NCBI GenBank assembly: GCA_043816785.1
Contig: JBDRHP010000088.1
Location: 1-15,686, forward strand
Length of the DNA: 15,686 nucleotides
Reading direction: 5' to 3'
Source: Candidatus Margulisiibacteriota bacterium
GTDB taxonomy: Bacteria; Margulisbacteria; WOR-1; O2-12-FULL-45-9
Below are positions 72 to 15,686 of the stretch, piece by piece. The notes below the pieces were generated by a model. The model searched no databases. It was not told the DNA's origin and saw only the letters and a program-made list of their open reading frames with translations. The position numbers and the translations under genes were made by a program. Position 1 is the first letter of the stretch. Each line of letters opens with the position of its first letter.

Positions 72-113
72 ACCTCAAGAAACCGCGAAGTTCATTCGCC
101 GGTTTCTTGAGGT
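72..113. repeat. Single copy of the 28-bp palindromic element (core 79..106) with 7-bp complementary flanks
   Basis: acctcaa-GAAACCGCGAAGTTCATTCGCCGGTTTC-ttgaggt. The core matches 11686..11713 (GGAACCGCGAAGTTTATTCGCAGGTTCC) at 24/28 positions. Confidence 0.85.
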
Positions 114-1670: not shown

Positions 1671-3869
1671 ATGACAAGACAACTAAGTTTCTCACTATAT
1701 CCGCTTTTATCACCGCGCCAAGCCAGGCAGCTGCGGCACTGGCGAAAAGAGCTGAGTGTTAGAACAGCATCTTATGCCCGCATGGCCAGAATATCTTCAG
1801 ATACACGGCCGGTCCAGATCGGCCGACTAGGGAACGTTTTTGTCGGCCAGAAGATCGATGAGTATGTCCCCTTGGAATATCAGCAAGCGATCACTAAGCT
1901 TAGTTCTAGAATTGCCGATCCCCATGGTCGGGCTTTGGTTGAAGCCGCCTGCTATCTTGCCTGGGAAGGCCATCATGGAAAAAACCGGGATGATGGCAGC
2001 CCCTTTGTCACACATCCTCTTGCTGTGGCCAATATCTTGCTTGGCTGGGGGGTTGGGGCAGAAACAATTGCCGCGGCCTTATGTCATGATCTGATCGAGG
2101 ATGGAAAGATGAATAACGGCGATCGGGTTACCAACGAAGTTTTAGCGCAACATTTGGGAGAACGGCTAGCACAGCTGGTTGACGGGGTGACAGAGTTCGG
2201 CAAAGAACCTGAGTTTAAGGGCGAAAAACCATCGATCGCTGAAATATTTAAAAAGCTCTTTGCTTATGCTGTCCGGGACCTGGACATTCTGATTATTAAA
2301 TTAGCCGACCGTTTGCATAATATGAGAACGCTCCAGTATAAAGCCTCTGACAAAAGATATGAAAAAGCCTTCGAAACCCTTAACGTGTACGCGCGAATCG
2401 CAGATATCCTGGGGATGTGGCAGCTAAAACGCGAGCTGGAGGATTGGAGTTTTCTTTATCTTGAGCCGGATAAATTCAAGGCTATTGAACAACGACGTTC
2501 CCGAATTTTTCAGGCAAGCGAAAATGATATTGCCAAAATAAAATTGGCCATTGAGCAAAATTTTGCAACTGCTGGGCTGAAAGTTGAAATTCCCCTTGAA
2601 GGTCGCCATGTTTATGAGCTTTATCAGAGGATGCAGCAGAGGGGGATTACCGACGTGGAGCAATTGACGGCAACTGATATTTGGCGTTTGAACATTGTTG
2701 TGCCTGAGCGGGCAGGCTCTTATGTGGCGCTGGGGCGCCTGCATGAGCTTTATGAGCCGATACAGAAGGAACTTTGTGACTACATTGGTGACCCAAGGTC
2801 CAACGGCCATCGGTTTTTACATACCTATGTTGTTGTGCCGCTTTTTGGCAGATTGTTAGTCCAGATCCGTGACCGTAAAATGTTCGCCCATTACCGTTTT
2901 GGGATTATGGGTTTGAGCCCTGCTGAGCGGGAACAGGAAAAACAAAGACAGACCTGGCTGACAGCCGCCAGAAGCCATTTAGAAGAAGGCGGGCTGTCAA
3001 CTGAGGAGACCTATGAAATAATTCGCCTGGTCAGCGCCCCGATAAAAGCCTATACGCCGAATGGGGATGAAATAGAATTGCCTTTTGGTTCAACTGTGCT
3101 TGATTTTGCCCGAAGTGTCCATGAGGAGGTCTTATATGCAGCTGCTGGAGGAATTGTCAATGGACAACGGGTGGAAATTTTTCATGAACTGCAATATGGT
3201 GACCGGGTAGACGTTATTAAGGACGAGGCGGTAATTCCTACACTTGAATGGCTGGAACATGTCCGGACACCGGAGGCCAAAAGTTCTATCAGAGTCTTTT
3301 TGTCTATTCAGGCAAATATAGATATCTATGCTGGCGCCTTGAAGGCCTTGGACGCGGCTTTAAAAAAATATTTTATTCCAGCAAAAGATCTGATCGAAAC
3401 AGATTTGTTTAGCCGATTTGTCAGGACGTATGGGTCTAGCGATTCGCAGGCCTTTCTGCTGGAAATTGGCAAAGGCCGAAGAAATGTCGAAAAGATAGTG
3501 AGGGAGTTGCGGGCTTATTATCGAAAGTTATTCAAGAGGATTATTAAAAAGGCTGCTGAGCAACCTGATGAGTTCTCCCCATATTATTTATCGATTGAGA
3601 CCGAGGATGAACGCGGAAAATTAAAGATCCTGGTTAATGAATTAGATTCCATGGGCTATAACATTCATGATATTTTTCAAGCGGACTCTGAAAAACTGGA
3701 AAAGGCAATTATTGTTTTTGCCGTTGATCTATTGCCAAGGCGCGGGTTGGCGGGGACGCTCAGACGGATCCAAACAATTCAGGTCCAGACAATTGCTGCC
3801 ACAGTTGGGGCAACAACCTTGCTAAGGCCGGACGGCGTGGAAGCCTTGAGAAGGCGCAGGAGAATATAA
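1671..3869 (+). CDS. Divergent long RelA/SpoT homologue: HD hydrolase, degenerate synthetase, TGS, helical and ACT-like domains
   Basis: 732 aa. RDDGSPFVTHPLAVA, AALCHDLIED and IKLADRLHNMRTL hydrolase motifs. TGS: YTPNGDEIELPFGSTVLDFARSVH. ACT-like IETEDERGKL. Synthetase motifs are substituted. Confidence 0.88.
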   Translation: MTRQLSFSLYPLLSPRQARQLRHWRKELSVRTASYARMARISSDTRPVQIGRLGNVFVGQKIDEYVPLEYQQAITKLSSRIADPHGRALVEAACYLAWEGHHGKNRDDGSPFVTHPLAVANILLGWGVGAETIAAALCHDLIEDGKMNNGDRVTNEVLAQHLGERLAQLVDGVTEFGKEPEFKGEKPSIAEIFKKLFAYAVRDLDILIIKLADRLHNMRTLQYKASDKRYEKAFETLNVYARIADILGMWQLKRELEDWSFLYLEPDKFKAIEQRRSRIFQASENDIAKIKLAIEQNFATAGLKVEIPLEGRHVYELYQRMQQRGITDVEQLTATDIWRLNIVVPERAGSYVALGRLHELYEPIQKELCDYIGDPRSNGHRFLHTYVVVPLFGRLLVQIRDRKMFAHYRFGIMGLSPAEREQEKQRQTWLTAARSHLEEGGLSTEETYEIIRLVSAPIKAYTPNGDEIELPFGSTVLDFARSVHEEVLYAAAGGIVNGQRVEIFHELQYGDRVDVIKDEAVIPTLEWLEHVRTPEAKSSIRVFLSIQANIDIYAGALKALDAALKKYFIPAKDLIETDLFSRFVRTYGSSDSQAFLLEIGKGRRNVEKIVRELRAYYRKLFKRIIKKAAEQPDEFSPYYLSIETEDERGKLKILVNELDSMGYNIHDIFQADSEKLEKAIIVFAVDLLPRRGLAGTLRRIQTIQVQTIAATVGATTLLRPDGVEALRRRRRI

Positions 3870-3873
3870 ACTA

Positions 3874-6714
3874 TTAGTGTCCTGATTCAGCCCAGTTTTT
3901 CCCGGTCCCCAAATCTACTTTGACCGGAACTTTTAAAGCGAGAGCCGCGACCATTTCTTCCTCAACAATCTTTTTGATTTTTTCAACTTCTTCTTTTGGG
4001 CATTCAAATACTAATTCATCGTGGACTTGAAGGAGCAGGCGAGATTGGTAGTCAGTAGCCTGTAGGCTGTTAAATATTTTGACCATGGCAACTTTGATCA
4101 TGTCCGCCGCGGTCCCCTGGACTGGCGTGTTGATCGCGGTTCGCTCGGCAAATGAACGCAAACCATGGTTAGGGTTGTTTATGTCAGGCAGCGGCCTCTT
4201 CCTGCCCAGCATGGTCGTGACATAACCGTTTTCTTTAGCTTGTTTAATGGTCTTATCTATGAATTCTTTAACGCCTGTGTGTTTATTAAAATACTTGCTG
4301 ATGTACTCGGCTGCTTCTGTCCTTTTGATCTTTAATTGTTTGGCCAGGCCGAAATCGGAAATGCCATAGATAATGCCAAAATTAACGGTCTTGGCAGCGG
4401 CGCGGCTAATCCCAAGCTCGTCAGCAGTTAATTGATGTATGTCGTGGTTTTCCTGGAAAGCGGCCAGCAATACCGGATCCTGACTTAGATCCGCCAGGAT
4501 GCGCAGTTCGATCTGTGAATAGTCGGCCGCGATCATGACCCAATCCTTTTTTCCTGGCACAAAGGCTGCGCGGATGCGCTTGCCCCAGTCGCCCTTGGCC
4601 GGGATATTCTGCAGATTTGGCTTGGAACTGGACAGCCGACCCGTGGCGGTGATGGTTTGATTAAAAGAAGTATGTATGCGGCTGGTTTTTGTATGGACCA
4701 GGGTAGGGAGGACATCGACATAAGTGGATTTTAGTTTGGTCAGCTGACGATAGGCCATAAGTTTTTCCGCGATCTCAAATTTTTGCGCGGCCAGCTCTTC
4801 TAATACTTCCACGTTAGTGGAGATGCCGGTCTTGGTGCGCTTGATCACCGGCAGCTGCAGTTTTTCAAATAGGATCTTTGATAATTGTTTAGGGGAATTG
4901 AGGTTAAAGGTCTCTCCGGCAATGGCATAGATATCTTCTTCCACATCCTTGAGTGATTTTTCCATCTCCTTGGACATTTTGTTTAGGAGCGCTGCATCCA
5001 GGCTAATGCCATTGCTTTCCATCTCAACCAGCACGGCGATCAGCGGCATTTCAACCTCATAAAAAAGCTTGTCCAGCTTTTGGCCTTTAAGCGCCAGCTT
5101 GAATATTTCGTATAAGCCAAAAGTTACGTCAGCGTCCGAGGCCGCGTAATCAATGGCTACCTCAATGGGCACCTCAGCAAAGTTCTCATATTCCGCGTCT
5201 TTGCCGATCAATTCTACTAATTTGATCATTTCCCGGCCCAAAAATTGTTTACCCAGTGTTTTTAAGGCGTATTTGCCGGAAATCGGATCAAGCAGGTAAG
5301 CTGCCACCATGGTGTCAAAGAGCGGGCCGCTGACCTCAAGGCCGGCATTTTTTAGTATCTCGATATCATACTTAATATTATGGCCGATCTTTAATTTGTC
5401 CGAACTGAATAAAGGTTGTAATCTGTCCAGCACAATCTTTAAAGGAACCTGAGACTGAACGTCTCGGTTCCTTTTGTCGGAACCGCGAAGCACCTCGACT
5501 TCGCTCGGTGCTGCCCTGAGCATCTCGACTCCGCTCGATGCTGCCCCGAGCTTGTCGAGGGGCTTGCCGAAGGGTTTATTCGCAGGTTCCGATTTGTGTC
5601 CGATAGGTATATAGAAGGCAGACTTTGCTTCTGTGGAGATCGACAGACCGACGATCTTGGCAGTAAAGGGATCTAGGCTGGTGGTTTCCAGATCAAAAGC
5701 AAACGCCTGGGCGGCTTGGAGTTTCTTGATCAATTTGGCCAGGGTTTCTTCGCTTTGCACGCAGGTAAAATCCAATTCAGAGATCTTGATCCTCTTTTTT
5801 TCTATGATCTCTTCGGTTTGGTATCCCTCAACTCCCTGGCTGTATTTTTTGACCAGGCGGTCAAATTCCAGTTTAGTAAATAACGGCAGGACTTTTTGCC
5901 AATTGATGCCAGTGCGTTTGCATTTATCAAAATCAATTTCAATCGGAACATTGGTGACAATGGTTGCCAGCATCTTGCTTAGTTTTGCCAGCTCAATGTT
6001 CTTTTTAATGTTCTCTTTGAGCGCTTTTTTAGTTATACGGTCAACATTCTCCAGAATATTCTCTAAAGTCCCGAATTCTTTTAATAGCTGGGCCGCTGTT
6101 TTGTCGCCAACCTTGGGCACGCCGGGAATATTGTCTGAAGCATCGCCCTTTAACGCCTTAAAATCAATTATTTGACTGGCCTGAATGCCGTAACGGTCTG
6201 TGACTTCCTTTTCTCCGTAAAGCATGGTATCGGTTATGCCTTTACGCGTGGTCAGCACCTTAATCTTCTTGCTTACCAGCTGCAGCGTATCAAGGTCGCC
6301 GGTTAATATCTCAACCGTGTACCCTTGTTGCTCTGCTTCTTTGGCCAGGGTGCCAATTACGTCGTCGGCTTCAAAACCAGCGATCTCATAGATCGGGATA
6401 TCAAGGGCTTCCGCGATTTGTTTTACGTAAGGGAACTGTTCGCGCAGGCTGGGCGGGGCCTTGTCGCGAGTGGCTTTATATTCTTTATACTCTTTATGCC
6501 TGAAGGTTGGCTCAGGCCGGTCAAAAGAAATTGCTACAAAATCAGGTTTTTCGTCCAGAACTTTGAGCAGCATGGTGGTAAAACCGTAGATGGCATTGGT
6601 AGTAATGCCGCTAGTGGTGCGCATGGTGTCGGGCAGGGCATAGAAAGCGCGGTAGGCGAGGGAGTTTCCGTCTATTAGGACGATCAGGGGGTCGTGTGTT
6701 TTAGGATTTTTCAC
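3874..6714 (-). CDS. polA: DNA polymerase I (5'-3' exo, 3'-5' exo, polymerase) with a repeat-derived in-frame insertion
   Basis: LIDGNSLAYRAFYAL, EADDVIGTLA, GDASDNIPGV, ExoI FDLET, ExoII GHNIKYD, ExoIII YAASDAD, TATGRLSS, DYSQIELR, AKTVNFGIIYG, QVHDELVFE. Start set at GTG 6714, overlapping the tsf end, because homology begins there. Confidence 0.96.
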   Translation of the reverse strand: MKNPKTHDPLIVLIDGNSLAYRAFYALPDTMRTTSGITTNAIYGFTTMLLKVLDEKPDFVAISFDRPEPTFRHKEYKEYKATRDKAPPSLREQFPYVKQIAEALDIPIYEIAGFEADDVIGTLAKEAEQQGYTVEILTGDLDTLQLVSKKIKVLTTRKGITDTMLYGEKEVTDRYGIQASQIIDFKALKGDASDNIPGVPKVGDKTAAQLLKEFGTLENILENVDRITKKALKENIKKNIELAKLSKMLATIVTNVPIEIDFDKCKRTGINWQKVLPLFTKLEFDRLVKKYSQGVEGYQTEEIIEKKRIKISELDFTCVQSEETLAKLIKKLQAAQAFAFDLETTSLDPFTAKIVGLSISTEAKSAFYIPIGHKSEPANKPFGKPLDKLGAASSGVEMLRAAPSEVEVLRGSDKRNRDVQSQVPLKIVLDRLQPLFSSDKLKIGHNIKYDIEILKNAGLEVSGPLFDTMVAAYLLDPISGKYALKTLGKQFLGREMIKLVELIGKDAEYENFAEVPIEVAIDYAASDADVTFGLYEIFKLALKGQKLDKLFYEVEMPLIAVLVEMESNGISLDAALLNKMSKEMEKSLKDVEEDIYAIAGETFNLNSPKQLSKILFEKLQLPVIKRTKTGISTNVEVLEELAAQKFEIAEKLMAYRQLTKLKSTYVDVLPTLVHTKTSRIHTSFNQTITATGRLSSSKPNLQNIPAKGDWGKRIRAAFVPGKKDWVMIAADYSQIELRILADLSQDPVLLAAFQENHDIHQLTADELGISRAAAKTVNFGIIYGISDFGLAKQLKIKRTEAAEYISKYFNKHTGVKEFIDKTIKQAKENGYVTTMLGRKRPLPDINNPNHGLRSFAERTAINTPVQGTAADMIKVAMVKIFNSLQATDYQSRLLLQVHDELVFECPKEEVEKIKKIVEEEMVAALALKVPVKVDLGTGKNWAESGH
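5444..5590. repeat. 147-bp composite palindromic insertion in polA: 28-bp hairpin doublet containing two nested 42-bp units
   Basis: 5444..5471 is identical to 11647..11674. 5479..5490 joined to 5575..5590 is identical to 11686..11713. The intervening 84 bp are two related 42-bp units. Confidence 0.93.
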
Positions 6715-7300
6715 CCAATTGATATCTGGTAAATCTTCTAATAACGATATTTTCGCCGATCTTAGCGACCAGGTCAGACAACAGGTCTTTAATGCTTGTT
6801 TTGGGATCCTTAATATAGGGCTGGTCCAGCAAGCAGATCTCAGAGTAAAACTTCTCAATTCGTCCTTCAACTATTTTTTGCCTGGCTTTTTCCGGTTTGC
6901 CTTCCTGCTTGGCCTGGGTCTCCAAGATATCCTTTTCATGAGCAATAATGCCTTCCGGCACATCCTCACGGGAAACATATTGCGGATTAGAAGCGGCGAT
7001 CTGCATGCTGATATCTTTAACAAAGGCCTGGAACTCAATGTTCTTGGCCACAAAATCAGTTTCGCTGTTCACTTCCACTAAAACACCGAGCTTGCCGCCG
7101 ATATGGATGTAAGAATCAACTAAGCCCTGGGCCGCGACCCGGCCGGCGCGTTTAGCTGCCGAGGCCAGACCTTTCTTCCGGAGGATATCAGAAGCCTTTT
7201 CCATGTCACCATTGGCTTCGGCTAAAGCTTTTTTGCAATCCATCATGCCGCAGCTGGTTTTTTCTCTGAGTTTTTGAATTGATTCCACGCTGATAGTCAT
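6701..7300 (-). CDS. tsf: Translation elongation factor Ts (short form)
   Basis: 199 aa. LREKTSCGMMDCKKAL, EVNSETDFVAKN, IGENIVIRRFTRYQLGE. Lies downstream of rpsB. Confidence 0.97.
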   Translation of the reverse strand: MTISVESIQKLREKTSCGMMDCKKALAEANGDMEKASDILRKKGLASAAKRAGRVAAQGLVDSYIHIGGKLGVLVEVNSETDFVAKNIEFQAFVKDISMQIAASNPQYVSREDVPEGIIAHEKDILETQAKQEGKPEKARQKIVEGRIEKFYSEICLLDQPYIKDPKTSIKDLLSDLVAKIGENIVIRRFTRYQLGEKS

Positions 7301-8211: not shown

Positions 8212-9318
8212 TATCGGCGGCTGTTTCCGGCTAAAAAAGGTTTCCGGAAAGCCATCCAGCGGCCAGCCGCGTTCATCCAGAGACAGGGAGAAATAAGAGG
8301 TAGCATTGTTGGCGAAGTTGCCATAGGGATGATAGGCATAGTGGAAGCCGATGCCGGCAAAATTCAGGCTAACACCGAAAGTAAAATTATTTTGAATGCC
8401 GTTGGGTTGCGGATCCTGGTCCATGCCGCCCCTGAGAGTCAGGAAATGATTGGGCGAGAACTCCAGGCCAAGGTGGGTGGTGGTTGGTTTGGCGCTCTGC
8501 AGGCTAAGGTCTGCGTCGGCCACGGCGGTCAGTTCCAGGGGCGAGAGAATAGCTGACTCGAACTCTTCACCCATCAGAAACATTCTGGTGCCGATCTTGA
8601 TCGACAGGGGTAAATCCTCTTCCTGGCCGCTGCGGTAGTGGATCTTGCCCGAACTTAAGAGGTTCTGGCCGACCAGGCCAAAAGAAAGCCAGCCCAAGCC
8701 TTTTTGGAGGAAACCAACATCAATGTTCATGCCTGAGCCGTAGGCGTCATTGAGTTCATTGCCGTCCTGAGAAAAGAACTTGAGATTAATGCCCAGGGAG
8801 ACTTTTTCCGAAAGTTTCCTGCCGTAGGAAGCCAGCAGCACGCTGTTGCCGAAGTTTGATCTCTGCAGCAGGGTGCCGGCAGTGTCCCGGATATCGATGG
8901 CGGTGACCGCGGCCGCCGCATAGCCGATACCAATGGCGCTTCTTTCTCCCAGCGGATAAACCCCGCCTAAAACTGTGTACTGCACTTCTTCTAATAAACT
9001 GCCGGACATGCTGGTGAACTCAAAGGCGTCAATTTCGCCCAAGCCGGCCGGGTTATTAAAAATAGTGTCACTATTTTCCGCCACGGCAACGTAAGCCTTG
9101 CCCATTCCTAAGGCCCGGGCGCCGACACCAATGGCCAACGGATCGAATGCCGTCTGTGCAAATGACCAAGATACAAGTAACAAGAACCAAGCAATAACCA
9201 AGAAACAAATTCCAATAACCAATTTCGGAATTTTGAATTTTGAATTTGAAATTTGTTTGTATCTTGTATCTTGTTTGTATCTTGTATCTTGTTTCTTGGT
9301 TATTGGTTTATAACCCAT
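8200..9318 (-). CDS. PorV/PorQ-like (FadL-fold) outer-membrane beta-barrel protein with signal peptide
   Basis: 372 aa. IGVGARALGMGKAYVAVA and IFNNPAGL motifs, alternating beta-strands, C-terminal FHYAY...YFSLSL, hydrophobic signal ending SFA-Q. Confidence 0.8.
   Translation of the reverse strand: MGYKPITKKQDTRYKQDTRYKQISNSKFKIPKLVIGICFLVIAWFLLLVSWSFAQTAFDPLAIGVGARALGMGKAYVAVAENSDTIFNNPAGLGEIDAFEFTSMSGSLLEEVQYTVLGGVYPLGERSAIGIGYAAAAVTAIDIRDTAGTLLQRSNFGNSVLLASYGRKLSEKVSLGINLKFFSQDGNELNDAYGSGMNIDVGFLQKGLGWLSFGLVGQNLLSSGKIHYRSGQEEDLPLSIKIGTRMFLMGEEFESAILSPLELTAVADADLSLQSAKPTTTHLGLEFSPNHFLTLRGGMDQDPQPNGIQNNFTFGVSLNFAGIGFHYAYHPYGNFANNATSYFSLSLDERGWPLDGFPETFFSRKQPPILQI
9160..9306. repeat. Inverted array of degenerate heptamer repeats (CAANNNN facing NNNNTTG)
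   Basis: caagata caagtaa caagaac caag caataac caagaaa caaattc caataac caatttc ... tatcttg tatcttg tttcttg gttattg. Perfect 17-bp IR at 9192..9208/9289..9305 and an 18-bp tandem duplication at 9256..9291. Confidence 0.9.
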
Positions 9319-11643: not shown

Positions 11644-11715
11644 TATGGAACCTGAGACTGAACGTCTCGGTTCCATAACGTTTAAGGAACCGCGAAGTTT
11701 ATTCGCAGGTTCCTT
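11644..11715. repeat. Intergenic inverted doublet (REPIN-like) of the 28-bp palindromic element
   Basis: GGAACCTGAGACTGAACGTCTCGGTTCC (11647..11674), an 11-nt spacer, then GGAACCGCGAAGTTTATTCGCAGGTTCC (11686..11713). The second is a reverse-complement variant of the first. Confidence 0.92.
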
Positions 11716-13054: not shown

Positions 13055-13774
13055 ATGATTAAGGAGTTTCAAAGGATCGGTAAGTTTTTGTTTCAAGAAG
13101 GATTAATTGATTCGCATGGCGGTAATATGAGCCTGTTGGAGGGAGATCGGATCTTCATCACCCGCCGGGATTCCATGCTGGGGGACCTTAGGGAAAGCGA
13201 TATTGTTGAAGTTGGTCTGGAGACTGGGCCGGAAGACGGGCAGGCCTCGCGGGAATTGCCGACCCATCGGGCTATTTACAAGCTGGGCAAAGCCAAGGCC
13301 ATAGTCCACGCGCATTCCGCGAATGCTATTGCGCTGTCTATTACCGACAATAAGATCGTGCCGCAGGATGCCGAAGGCCTGTACTTTTATAAGGCCGCGC
13401 CGATCGTTCGGGTGCGTGACGGTATTGGTTCGGAAGAGACCGTTCGCCTGCTGCCGAATTTTTTGGGCGGCGAGAATGTGATTGCCGTGGTCAAGAGCCA
13501 CGGTAGTTTTGCTGTTGGCAATAGTTTGGCCGAGGCCTACAAGTACACTTCATCCTTAGAAAATTCCTGCAAGATCATTGTGGCCATAAGATCTTCTGGC
13601 GGTAGAGGACCAGGTTCAGGAGGAGGAAGAGTACCAGGAGTAGGGGGGAGAGACATAGGACAAGGACGGGGCCCGGTAGGCGGGGGACATGGACGAAGAG
13701 ACAAGGGTGGATATAAGTCAGCCATTCCGCCCGGCATCGGAGTTATGGACAGAAGCCGGCGCCACAAACGATGA
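13055..13774 (+). CDS. Class II aldolase/adducin family protein (fuculose-phosphate aldolase-like) with Gly/Arg-rich C-terminal tail
   Basis: GGNMS, ASRELPTHRAIY, IVHAHS and KSHG Zn-binding motifs. SD AGGAGG. Confidence 0.88.
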   Translation: MIKEFQRIGKFLFQEGLIDSHGGNMSLLEGDRIFITRRDSMLGDLRESDIVEVGLETGPEDGQASRELPTHRAIYKLGKAKAIVHAHSANAIALSITDNKIVPQDAEGLYFYKAAPIVRVRDGIGSEETVRLLPNFLGGENVIAVVKSHGSFAVGNSLAEAYKYTSSLENSCKIIVAIRSSGGRGPGSGGGRVPGVGGRDIGQGRGPVGGGHGRRDKGGYKSAIPPGIGVMDRSRRHKR

Positions 13775-15686
13775 CAGAGTTTGAAGCCTTATTATCCGGA
13801 TTAAAAAGTTATAATCCCCAGGCGGATCTTGGGGTGGTCAGGAAGGCGTATGCTTTTGCCGACCACGCCCATCGGGAACATAAGAGACTTTCCGGCGAAC
13901 CCTATATTACCCATCCTTTGGCAGTGGCATCGATCCTGGTGGAGCTCGAGCAGGACCCTTTGACCATTGCCGCGGCGCTGCTGCATGATGTGGTTGAGGA
14001 TGCTGAGGTTAGCCGCGAGGACCTGACTAAAGAATTCGGGGCTGAAGTGGCCAAGCTGGTTGAGGGTGTTACAAAATTGAGCCAGCTGACCTTTACCAGC
14101 CGCGAAGTCCGCCAGGCTGAAAATTTCCGCAAAATGTTCGTGGCCATGGGTGAAGATTTTCGGATCATTGTTATCAAGTTATCGGACCGCCTGCACAATA
14201 TGCGCACCTTAAAATACCTGCCCCCGCCCAAACAAAAGGATACTGCTTTAGAAACCCGCGAGATCTTTGCTCCTTTAGCCCATCGCTTAGGCATGTGGCG
14301 CTTGAAGTGGGAGCTGGAGGACCTGGCGTTTTCTTTTTTAGAGCCGGACAAGTACGAGGAGGTCAAGGGCTGGGTGACGGAAAGCCGCGGCGCGCGCGAA
14401 AGATATATCAAGAGTTTTATTGAAGAGTCCACGGCCATGCTGAAAAAGGTTGGCGTTGATGGCCATAGCTACGGCCGGCCCAAACATTTCTACAGCATTT
14501 ACCACAAGATGGTCGATCAGAATTTAGACTTTGATGAGATCTATGATCTGACAGCTGTCCGGATCGTTGTTGACACCATCAAAGAGTGCTATGCCGTGCT
14601 GGGTCTGGTCCACGCGGCCTGGAAGCCGATCCCAGGGAGGTTCCGCGATTATATTGCCATGCCCAAATCAAATGGTTATCAATCCTTGCACACCACAGTC
14701 ATCGGGCCGTCCGGCAAACCAGTGGAGATCCAGATCCGGACCAAGGAAATGCACCGGATAGCGGAATATGGCATTGCTGCCCACTGGCGCTACAAAGAAA
14801 AAGATACTGATAAGGGGCTGGACCAGAAAATGTCCTGGTTTCGGCAAATGCTGGAATGGCAGGATGAGCTGAAGGATGCCAAGGATTTTATGGAAAGCTT
14901 AAAGATCGATCTTTTTGTTGATGAAGTTTTTGTTTTTACGCCCAAGGGTGATGTTTTTGGCCTGCCGATCGGCGCGACGCCGGTTGATTTCGCCTATCAT
15001 GTGCATACCGAGGTTGGGCATCGCACAGTTGGTGCGCGGGTCAACGGCCGGATCGTGCCTTTGGATTTTAAATTGCGCCACGGCGACATTGTTGAGATGC
15101 TGACCGGGAAAAAAGATAATCCCAGCCGGGATTGGGTGAGGTTTGTTAAGACCGCGGGAGCGCGGGTTAAGGTCAATAACTGGTTTAAGAAGCAGCGCGG
15201 CGTCAAAAAGGAAGAAGCTGCGCAGGCCATTGTGGCCAGGGAAGACGAGCCGCAGGTCAAGCCATTGCTCGTGCCGCGGCCCAGGGTTAAAGCCAAGTCA
15301 GCGGTCACGGTTTCCGGCCTGGAGAACGTCCTGGTCCGTTTTTCCCGCTGCTGCCGGCCGATCCCCGGTGAGGAGATCATTGGATTTGTAACTCGGGGCA
15401 AAGGCATTACTGTTCATCGCCATGATTGTCCCAATGTGATAAGCCAGGATATCCCAAAGGAGCGAGTTATCCGGGTAGATTGGAATCCCAAAAGAGAGAT
15501 CGTGTTTCCAGTGGAAGTAGAGGTTGAGGCTTTTGATCGAGTAGGGGTGCTCAAGGATATTCTGGGCCAGATCTCGGAGATAAAGACCAATGTTTCAGCT
15601 GCCAAGATCTCGACCAAGCGCGGCAGCTCCGCCTTTTTGCGCCTAACGGTTGATGTAAAAGATAAGCAGCATCTTGAAGAGGTTAT
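13771..15686 (+). CDS. rel: Bifunctional (p)ppGpp synthetase/hydrolase Rel (partial, continues beyond right edge)
   Basis: Own translation from ATG 13771 (ATGA overlap with the aldolase stop): RLSGEPYITHPL, LLHDVVED, KLSDRLHNMRTL, GRPKHFYSIYHKM, YDLTAVR, RFRDY, NGYQSLHT, EIQIRT, AEYGIAAHWRYK, TGS, SRCCRP...HRHDC, ACT. Missing from the ORF track because there is no stop codon in the window. Confidence 0.96.
   Translation, partial: MTEFEALLSGLKSYNPQADLGVVRKAYAFADHAHREHKRLSGEPYITHPLAVASILVELEQDPLTIAAALLHDVVEDAEVSREDLTKEFGAEVAKLVEGVTKLSQLTFTSREVRQAENFRKMFVAMGEDFRIIVIKLSDRLHNMRTLKYLPPPKQKDTALETREIFAPLAHRLGMWRLKWELEDLAFSFLEPDKYEEVKGWVTESRGARERYIKSFIEESTAMLKKVGVDGHSYGRPKHFYSIYHKMVDQNLDFDEIYDLTAVRIVVDTIKECYAVLGLVHAAWKPIPGRFRDYIAMPKSNGYQSLHTTVIGPSGKPVEIQIRTKEMHRIAEYGIAAHWRYKEKDTDKGLDQKMSWFRQMLEWQDELKDAKDFMESLKIDLFVDEVFVFTPKGDVFGLPIGATPVDFAYHVHTEVGHRTVGARVNGRIVPLDFKLRHGDIVEMLTGKKDNPSRDWVRFVKTAGARVKVNNWFKKQRGVKKEEAAQAIVAREDEPQVKPLLVPRPRVKAKSAVTVSGLENVLVRFSRCCRPIPGEEIIGFVTRGKGITVHRHDCPNVISQDIPKERVIRVDWNPKREIVFPVEVEVEAFDRVGVLKDILGQISEIKTNVSAAKISTKRGSSAFLRLTVDVKDKQHLEEV

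Follow-up and report, generated by a model that had tools for sequence, protein, structure and literature searches.

Three tiers of nested palindromic repeats read in frame within the proofreading domain of PolA in a Saganbacteria genome

The polA gene of a Candidatus Margulisiibacteriota bacterium of the class Saganbacteria (assembly GCA_043816785.1) contains a 147-bp insert in which palindromic repeats of three levels sit inside one another, between the sequences coding for motifs ExoI and ExoII of the proofreading exonuclease. The gene lies on contig JBDRHP010000088.1, the 15,686 nt of which are the window analysed here (contig C88). The metagenome-assembled genome (MAG), labelled G000 in our comparisons, consists of 1.53 Mb in 106 contigs with 46.9% G+C, and the assembly is 87% complete. 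We refer to the 28-bp hairpin of the first level as REP-A, to the outer 42-bp unit as U2 and to the inner 42-bp unit as U3. Very probably, non-autonomous palindromic DNA of three generations makes up the 147 bp, all of it within a single permissive loop of the protein.

The preliminary description of the window, made from the sequence alone, had reported this nesting, and we could confirm it letter by letter (Table 1). The 28 nt at 5444..5471 are identical to 11647..11674, which belong to an intergenic pair in the same window, and once 84 nt (5491..5574) are excised, what is left of 5479..5590 is identical to the 28-mer at 11686..11713. In the earlier description, the pair was called a '28-bp hairpin doublet'. 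Both 28-mers do recur at 11647..11713, but they do not form a fixed 67-bp unit: they are two separate hairpins, with spacers of 7 nt in polA and 11 nt (11675..11685) in the intergenic pair. The insert corresponds to residues 428–476 of the polA frame and adds 49 amino acids in frame, in agreement with the peptide given earlier; the first REP-A copy is translated to ..NRDVQSQVP. The predicted folding energy of the 147 nt is −40.5 kcal/mol (z −7.1) for the plus strand and −41.2 kcal/mol (z −6.1) for the minus strand.

Table 1. Coordinates of polA, of the parts of its insert and of the other REP-A copies in the window.
Feature	Position	Strand	Remarks
polA open frame	3874..6870	minus	998 codons from TTG
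REP-A copy 1, intact	5444..5471	minus	consensus orientation GGAACCG..CAGGTTCC on minus strand
Inter-hairpin spacer, 7 nt, TTTTGTC	5472..5478		similar spacer at equivalent polA position in G058
REP-A copy 2, 5' arm and first loop base (GGAACCGCGAAG)	5479..5490	plus	
U2 head, 30 nt	5491..5520	plus	
U3, 42 nt	5521..5562	plus	placed after ..CCCTGAG of U2
U2 tail, 12 nt	5563..5574	plus	
REP-A copy 2, remaining loop and 3' arm with bulged A (TTTATTCGCAGGTTCC)	5575..5590	plus	
Intergenic REP-A pair, REPIN-like	11647..11713		between proC and yggT; 11-nt spacer; without loop insert
Third REP-A of the window	79..106	plus	variant, compensatory outer stem GAAACC..GGTTTC

REP-A is a high-copy repeat of this genome. 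At up to seven mismatches to GGAACCGCGACGTTTAGTCGCAGGTTCC, 106 intact copies were found, and addition of the copies split in their loop brings the total to 127, of which 106 are empty, 18 carry a 42-nt loop insert, one carries 21 nt, one 24 nt and the polA copy 84 nt. Besides one bulged base, the element has an outer stem of 6 bp, an inner stem of 5 bp (11 bp in all) and the loop GTTYA. Covariation is seen at four pairs of the stem (2/27, 4/25, 8/20 and 11/17), which are Watson–Crick in 103–106 of the 106 copies where 52–66 would be expected if the two sides were independent. Ninety-four of the 127 elements occur in pairs, and 44 of the 47 pairs share one inverted order, with spacers of 3–42 nt. 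REP-A is thus a short imperfect palindrome, present in many copies and mostly in inverted pairs, as are the repetitive extragenic palindromes (REPs) and their doublets forming hairpins (REPINs). Among 65 genomes of the class, 44 contain REP-A with the same stem variants throughout; the pattern read backwards gave no match in the 65 genomes. The GTAG or CGTC end tag is absent from REP-A, the ends of which are G[GA]A[AG]CC and GG[TC]T[CT]C with variable flanks. The two to four variable outer bases on the left and right are complementary to each other (position 0/29 is paired in 84 of 106 copies vs. 30 expected), which fits none of the insertion models considered.

A genome-wide search for the larger unit, also proposed in the preliminary description, was carried out with U2 rebuilt from its two pieces in polA. 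It occurs without mismatch at 11 other sites in G000, and at 18 sites with up to three mismatches; for both repeats, REP-A and U2, such numbers greatly exceed what chance would give. U2 is a branched 42-bp hairpin without coding capacity. In all 19 cases within REP-A (the 18 copies with 42 nt, and polA), the 5' arm plus G precedes U2 and TTYA of the loop follows it, in a single orientation; the exact point of insertion is uncertain by one G. Outer stems (GGAACC, GAAACC, GAAGCC), inner stems (GCGAA, GCGAC, GAGAC, GAGAA, GCAAA) and also loops vary among the host hairpins, giving at least five hairpin variants. As U2 is identical across these unlike hosts, it arrived separately in each of them. 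The targets of U units end in CGAAG, CGACG, AGACG, AGAAG, CAAAG, CTGAG, CCGAG or GCGAG, the last G alone being invariant. Hosts ending in ..GAAG are weakly preferred (12 of 19 filled vs. 35 of 106 empty copies, Fisher p 0.02). A guide-like pairing of TTCG in U2 with CGAA in the target was considered; it fits some targets only and is a weak hint at best.

The same loop junction is also occupied by other sequences: by a 24-nt unit at C25:19502, and by 21–22-nt copies of the CCTGCCTGCCGGCAGGCAGG palindrome family on C72 and upstream of the transposase gene on C60. This family of 20–22-nt palindromes has 38 copies at up to two mismatches and is spanned by long open frames at six sites, including the MutS gene on C60; the sites noted in G000 are C60:7300–7520, C72:14434–14483, C64:4595 and C73:1887, and a further one (L002) is in polA of G036.

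The third level follows the same rule as the second. The 3' part of U2 (CCCTGAG CTTGC CGAAGGG) is itself a small hairpin of the target type, so that a single rule covers all cases, namely insertion just 3' of the 5' arm of a hairpin plus G. In genomes G004 and G025 and in metagenome contigs, three kinds of site hold U units: the loop of REP-A, the position after CCCGAG in small CCCCGAG..TCGAGGGG hairpins, and the position after ..TGAG or ..CGAG in a further U unit. Nests of three levels were found in G004 (contig C9) and at a non-coding site of G000 (C11:45268–45375), and nesting of U in U at non-coding sites occurs in three genera. The distribution of the units is narrow. Matches to the U core were obtained in only three of the 65 class genomes (21 in G000, three in G004 and four in G025). 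A search of the species genomes of GTDB gave five loci, four of them in one Saganbacteria MAG and one in an Archangium MAG, and a search of the metagenome collection gave two loci only. The Archangium locus has no tail and looks like a chance match.

U3 might also be regarded as a local, hairpin-mediated duplication of U2 which diverged later. The two units adjoin, agree at 36 of 42 positions with transitions at all six others, and the heads of neighbouring U units can pair with each other in the predicted fold. However, the order head–head'–tail'–tail is that of a nested and not of a tandem arrangement, and U2 is still identical to its 11 other copies while U3 differs from it at six sites. 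Moreover, U3 matches 40 of the 42 nt of a unit of G025, a genome from another genus, which recurs unchanged in two metagenome contigs; the two differences (positions 27 and 39) constitute one compensatory pair. U3 therefore belongs to a sister subfamily and is not a local copy of U2. With U nesting recurring at unrelated loci in three genera, we regard a local duplication as highly improbable. The nesting itself gives the order of events: the REP-A pair came first, then U2, then U3.

Comparison with related genomes yielded a series of polA alleles. Most relatives have a short loop without palindrome. A polA match was obtained in 62 other genomes, and the alignment reaches into the insert in three of them only (G058, G025 and G036, from three other GTDB families). 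In G058 the 63-nt hairpin pair alone is present at exactly the same site, with the spacer GATCAAA vs. GACAAAA in G000 (coding strand). G036 has the pair and, in the loop of the same hairpin, a different 21-nt palindrome of the CCTGCCTGCCGGCAGGCAGG family, and G025 has a single hairpin. The empty and the pair-only alleles expected in the preliminary description were thus found. The pair, being at the same site in G058 and G036, is either old or recurrent in polA. In two further genomes, G024 and G019, the same loop contains a REP pair of the GTAG type.

The cleanest comparison of a filled and an empty site is provided by leuS. In G012, G010, G011 and G056, which represent four other genera, this gene has a REP-A pair with the spacer AATGAGCGA and without U2. 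The leuS gene of G000 has the same pair and spacer plus U2, AATAAA|CTTCGC (in G012) having become AATAAA[42 nt]CTTTGC. There is no target-site duplication, and the orientation of U2 is the fixed one. Orthologous REP-A copies differ by compensatory changes (CGC..TCG vs. CGA..TCT) which are synonymous in the frame used. The range of loop occupants is wider still: in leuS of G057 (locus L137), the palindrome CCCGCCTAGGCGGG stands in place of the inner stem and loop of one REP-A hairpin.

PolA is not the only protein with translated repeats. Judged by open frames and Pfam matches, most REP-A copies lie outside long frames. For 34 elements, an open frame continues for 40 codons or more in both directions, and 20 of these frames are recognisable genes. 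Sixteen genes, holding at least 25 of the 127 REP-A copies, have Pfam-matched sequence on both sides of the element; they encode AddA/UvrD-like, HemN-like, Lnt, Cu-ATPase, DAO-type oxidoreductase, MiaA, MetH, GT2, DinB, TsaD, IleRS, GltB, MutS, LeuRS, MiaB-like and PolA proteins. In the four other genes (MoeA, a metallophosphoesterase, an AIRC protein and NrdD), the element precedes or follows the matched domains and is perhaps outside the real gene or part of a domain that escaped detection. Four proteins (TsaD, LeuRS, MiaB-like and PolA) contain U2 in frame, and three of them share one frame (KPFGKLRAAPSEVEV).

The PolA frame encodes a 5'-3' exonuclease, a 3'-5' exonuclease and a family A polymerase domain. 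Relative to the Klenow fragment (1d9d_A), the insert is placed between chain residues 65 and 68, after ..AAYIPVAHD. As had been stated, the catalytic motifs are intact: ExoI (D, E), ExoII (N, D) and ExoIII (Y, D) are invariant in 36 aligned exonuclease domains (35 relatives and G000), in 11 of which the ExoI–ExoII span was measured and found to be 53–107 residues long. An AlphaFold2 model based on these 36 sequences has a mean predicted local distance difference test (pLDDT) score of 83 and a predicted template modelling (pTM) score of 0.80. Residues 90–130 of the model, within the insert, have pLDDT values below 50 and no secondary structure, and are located between a strand (78–83) and a helix (138–149), with values above 90 in the flanking parts of the domain. 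The 49 residues are accordingly modelled as a disordered surface loop which leaves the catalytic residues untouched. The alignment with PolA from relatives begins at about residue 57, and the frame opens at least 56 codons earlier, with TTG at 6870 (window 6700–6870), so that the true start codon of polA is probably downstream of this TTG.

The insert, or the hairpin pair, could have been co-opted, either as a selected peptide loop of PolA or as a DNA or RNA structure which regulates polA. The pair has been kept at one polA site in G000, G058 and G036 and at one leuS site in five genera, and the compensatory stem changes fall on synonymous third positions. It has also been speculated, in the accessible part of Di Nocera et al. 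(2013; PMC3733652), that REPs in genes for replication and repair alter the activity of the products; in our genome PolA, the AddA/UvrD-like protein, MutS and DinB carry one. On the other hand, the same peptides (EPANKLRGS, NRDVQSQV and KPFGKLRAAPSEVEV) occur in about 20 unrelated proteins, the insert is predicted to be disordered, and most relatives do without it. Upkeep of the stems would also be possible by gene conversion or template switching. We consider co-option very unlikely.

We searched for a transposase associated with the repeats. G000 has five matches to Y1_Tnp (PF01797). The genes on C10 and C60 are flanked by REP-A copies in inverted orientation, the C60 gene having an internal TAG. 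The C10 protein passes the IS200/IS605 model NF033573 with 69 bits (NCBIfam cut-off 55). Homologues of it were found in 30 of the 65 class genomes, and in 17 of the 30 fetched loci REP-A is located within 400 bp of the gene, mostly at less than 90 bp and typically with one copy per side in opposite orientation. By hand count, REP-A is present in 27 of the 30 genomes with a C10-type gene vs. 17 of the 35 without one, a count in which kin are not independent and the MAGs are incomplete. Across the class Saganbacteria, the REP-A family is associated with a low-copy IS200-like Y1 (HUH) transposase gene.

The open frame of the C10 transposase (C10:13933–14439, minus strand) continues through a REP-A hairpin which bears U2, so that the C-terminus is encoded by repeats which the transposase itself may mobilise. 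The three other Y1 genes (C16:17359–17676, C49:10273–10602 and C99:6781–7116) pass the NCBIfam model for REP-associated tyrosine transposases (RAYTs). Each of them is flanked by its own GTAG-type REP family and not by REP-A, and one of these families is that of the in-frame pair in the polA loop of G024 and G019.

The following course of events is proposed. In the first generation, an inverted, REPIN-like REP-A pair would have inserted into the proofreading domain behind ExoI, in the loop that succeeds the next beta strand. In the second, U2 would have inserted immediately 3' of a hairpin 5' arm plus G, in one orientation and without target duplication; it is found in loops of REP-A, in small CCCCGAG..TCGAGGGG hairpins and at the corresponding junction of other U units. 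In the third, U3 would have used that junction inside U2. As the loop inserts seen are all multiples of 3 nt (21, 24 and 42), selection need only purge copies with stops or at harmful positions. The preliminary description had suggested successive hairpin-targeted insertions by an active mobiliser, filtered for reading frame. The comparative data support such insertions; the word 'active' has to be restricted to past activity.

Movement would take place as single-stranded hairpins cut in trans by a Y1/HUH enzyme, which could be the REP-A-associated TnpA or one of the three RAYTs. Members of the IS200/IS605 family of insertion sequences (ISs) recognise hairpins with an unpaired base, are strand- and orientation-specific, and insert without target duplication 3' of a fixed tetra- or pentanucleotide beside the hairpins. 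Chemistry of the IS608/RAYT type would be in keeping with the bulged base, with the absence of a duplication and with the strict orientation. For the U units themselves, an enzyme of the Y1/HUH class is quite conceivable, at somewhat less than an even chance. Should they be moved by an HUH enzyme which nicks the loops of hairpins, their mode of transposition would stand between that of IS200/IS605 and rolling-circle Rep nicking. We further put forward, more tentatively, that U units could be an undescribed class of mobile DNA of at most 42 bp, parasites of parasites, which recognise the 5' edge of a hairpin loop on single-stranded DNA and build Russian dolls by duplication-free insertion in one orientation. 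Their lengths are fixed at multiples of three, so that they can ride inside REPs which are already located in essential genes.

The main alternative accepts the nesting as real and regards the U units as miniature derivatives, consisting of joined left and right ends, of REP-targeting ISs of the DDE/DEDD type (e.g. IS110 or IS3), moved as double-stranded DNA. That the target is not duplicated and the orientation is constant would be consistent with IS110. U3 sits at the 30|12 junction, where the cargo of a parent element would be expected, and G000 does have one gene of the IS110 family (PF01548, C11:105888); MAGs often miss IS copies. REPs are described as exact-point, orientation-specific targets of IS1397, ISKpn1, ISPpu9/10, ISPa11 and IS621, and full-length ISs of five families enter one exact REP point with high selectivity, in the accessible part of Tobes and Pareja (2006; PMC1525189). 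However, motifs of REP-A, U and P21 are all absent from the 1.5 kb around the IS110-family gene, and PF01548 gave no match in G004 and G025, both of which bear U units, or in G003 and G058. A parent element was not seen in G000, since every U head there is directly followed by its tail or by another head, and no head is parted from its tail by a gene. A double-stranded intermediate of 42 bp is also hard to imagine. We consider this alternative unlikely. A partner of the TnpB type (PF07282) was not found in the five genomes searched.

Several points weigh against the stacked insertion or the enzyme proposed for it. Some of them concern the locus and its alleles. The preliminary description had named a failure of reads to span the locus as a sign of an artefact. 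Public runs provide contigs with a short k-mer, and the best-matching runs may be the source sample of the MAG itself; no RNA run was listed among those with the sequence. Separate contigs cover 5100..5483 (polA into hairpin 2) and 5547..5934 (U3 tail into polA) with no differences and 5492..5590, which crosses both U2|U3 junctions, with one difference. No public contig spans the whole polA locus. The contig which bridges the junctions (run X1, record 7) continues into a different sequence after 5590; this may indicate a second nested locus in the community, or a join of the assembly graph through the shared 28–30-mer. Mis-joining of short repeats would be a concern in a MAG of 106 contigs, in particular as the repeat 5484..5520 is longer than the k-mer of the public contigs. 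In view of the separate contigs, of a frame which stays open over 998 codons and of equivalent nests in other genomes, an assembly artefact is nevertheless barely credible. Further, a polA allele with the pair and U2 only, the intermediate expected from the preliminary description, was not found among the 63 of 65 class genomes with a polA match. The pair is scattered patchily over four GTDB families, which calls either for an early insertion that was precisely lost several times, or for several insertions at exactly the same nucleotide. Finally, U3 is the inner and hence younger unit, and it has no second copy in the 87% complete assembly, while the outer U2 corresponds to the family consensus.

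The other points concern the enzyme. No link between the U units and an enzyme was found; among 29 loci with TnpA homologues in other genomes, none has a U unit beside the gene. As only the G at −1 is invariant, there is no clear target tetranucleotide as in IS200/IS605, and neither this lack of a fixed target word nor the cut at the loop edge fits Y1/HUH chemistry. Y1 transposases cut beside hairpins and are not known to cut in their loops. The C10 protein is below the cut-off of the RAYT model NF047646 REP_Tyr_transpos (48 vs. 80 bits), and 13 of the 30 transposase loci have no REP-A within 400 bp at the threshold chosen. Three REP-A-rich genomes (G019, G057 and G058), all of them incomplete MAGs, show no C10-type gene.

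Parts of this system resemble known ones. The layout of inverted REP pairs as REPINs has been described for Pseudomonas in the accessible parts of Bertels and Rainey (2011; PMC3116915) and of PMC3337134; REP/RAYT systems are also the subject of Messing et al. (2012; PMC3479197). Like REP/REPIN–RAYT systems, REP-A is a high-copy imperfect palindrome, occurs mostly in inverted pairs, flanks a low-copy Y1 gene in inverse orientation and persists throughout the class with the same variants. Unlike in those systems, the protein passes the IS200/IS605 and not the RAYT model, the GTAG/CGTC tag is absent, about a fifth of the copies are within genes, and the loop is a landing pad for mini-elements. 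REPs within genes are known, too: the accessible text of Di Nocera et al. (2013; PMC3733652) describes single REPs and dimers read in frame, often in genes for replication and repair including those for DNA polymerase I and UvrD-type helicases, and clusters encoding 43–82 amino acids. Those REPs are GTAG/CGTC-tagged and from other phyla, and a second-order unit in REP loops is not described in that part of the paper.

The precedent of Rickettsia palindromic elements (RPEs), quoted in the preliminary description, holds and is also mentioned in the part of PMC3733652 accessible to us, in which REPs within genes provide a closer one. Insertion in frame into many genes, here 16 Pfam-flanked and four uncertain ones, is common to RPEs and REP-A, whereas the host phylum differs, the sequence family is probably unrelated, and units of 28 and 42 bp are stacked in our case. 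RPEs are palindromic selfish DNA, which Ogata and colleagues are said to have found in 2000 in frame in many housekeeping genes, tolerated as surface loops. RPE-1 is a single unit of about 100–150 bp, and RPEs are not known to have an associated transposase. Small dispersed repeats (SDRs) of Nostoc are reportedly mobile repeats of 21–27 nt, some of them inside one another and in hairpin contexts (a description ascribed to Elhai and colleagues, 2008). U units are longer (42 nt), and a REP loop is not known to have been described as a target of SDRs. In contrast to the REP-targeting ISs, which are full-length and have their own transposase, U2 is a non-coding 42-bp unit which also targets itself and makes no target duplication, and unlike the site of IS200/IS605, that of U units is the 5' edge of a hairpin loop.

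What is known already, as far as the accessible parts of PMC3733652 and PMC1525189 show, is the presence of REPs in genes, also as dimers and in the genes for DNA polymerase I and repair proteins, and their role as exact IS targets. A mini-element that targets the REP loop and nests in itself appears to be a new variant. The literature searched, of which most subscription journals are not part, gave no description of repeats in Saganbacteria, and none of a non-coding mini-element for which REP loops and a hairpin of its own serve as targets and orthologous alleles form a series.

The finding offers a clean and datable series of tiny selfish DNA colonising essential genes, from empty through pair and pair plus U2 to pair plus U2 plus U3, and it presents the REP hairpin as a landing pad for a second tier of smaller elements, that is, parasites of parasites in an essential gene. 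The range of REPIN-like systems now includes Saganbacteria, which are a lineage sister to Cyanobacteria; the enzyme here resembles an ordinary IS200 transposase, and a fifth of the copies are translated. With units so small and a target so exactly defined, the mechanism could be tested by means of oligonucleotides and one or a few purified proteins. As some orthologous copies in frame keep their stems by synonymous compensation, selection, conversion and template switching can be tested against each other.

Two other features of the window were recorded. Tandem heptamers of the type TTGTATC occur at 9189–9308, and those of the types CAAATGA, ATCAGAA and ACTAACA on many other contigs of G000; they are reminiscent of the heptamer repeats which occur in cyanobacteria. 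Two genes of the RelA/SpoT family are located 10 kb apart, at 1671–3869 and 13771–15684, the first of which has only a weak match in the synthetase region (E 2.4e-09 vs. 1.3e-45).

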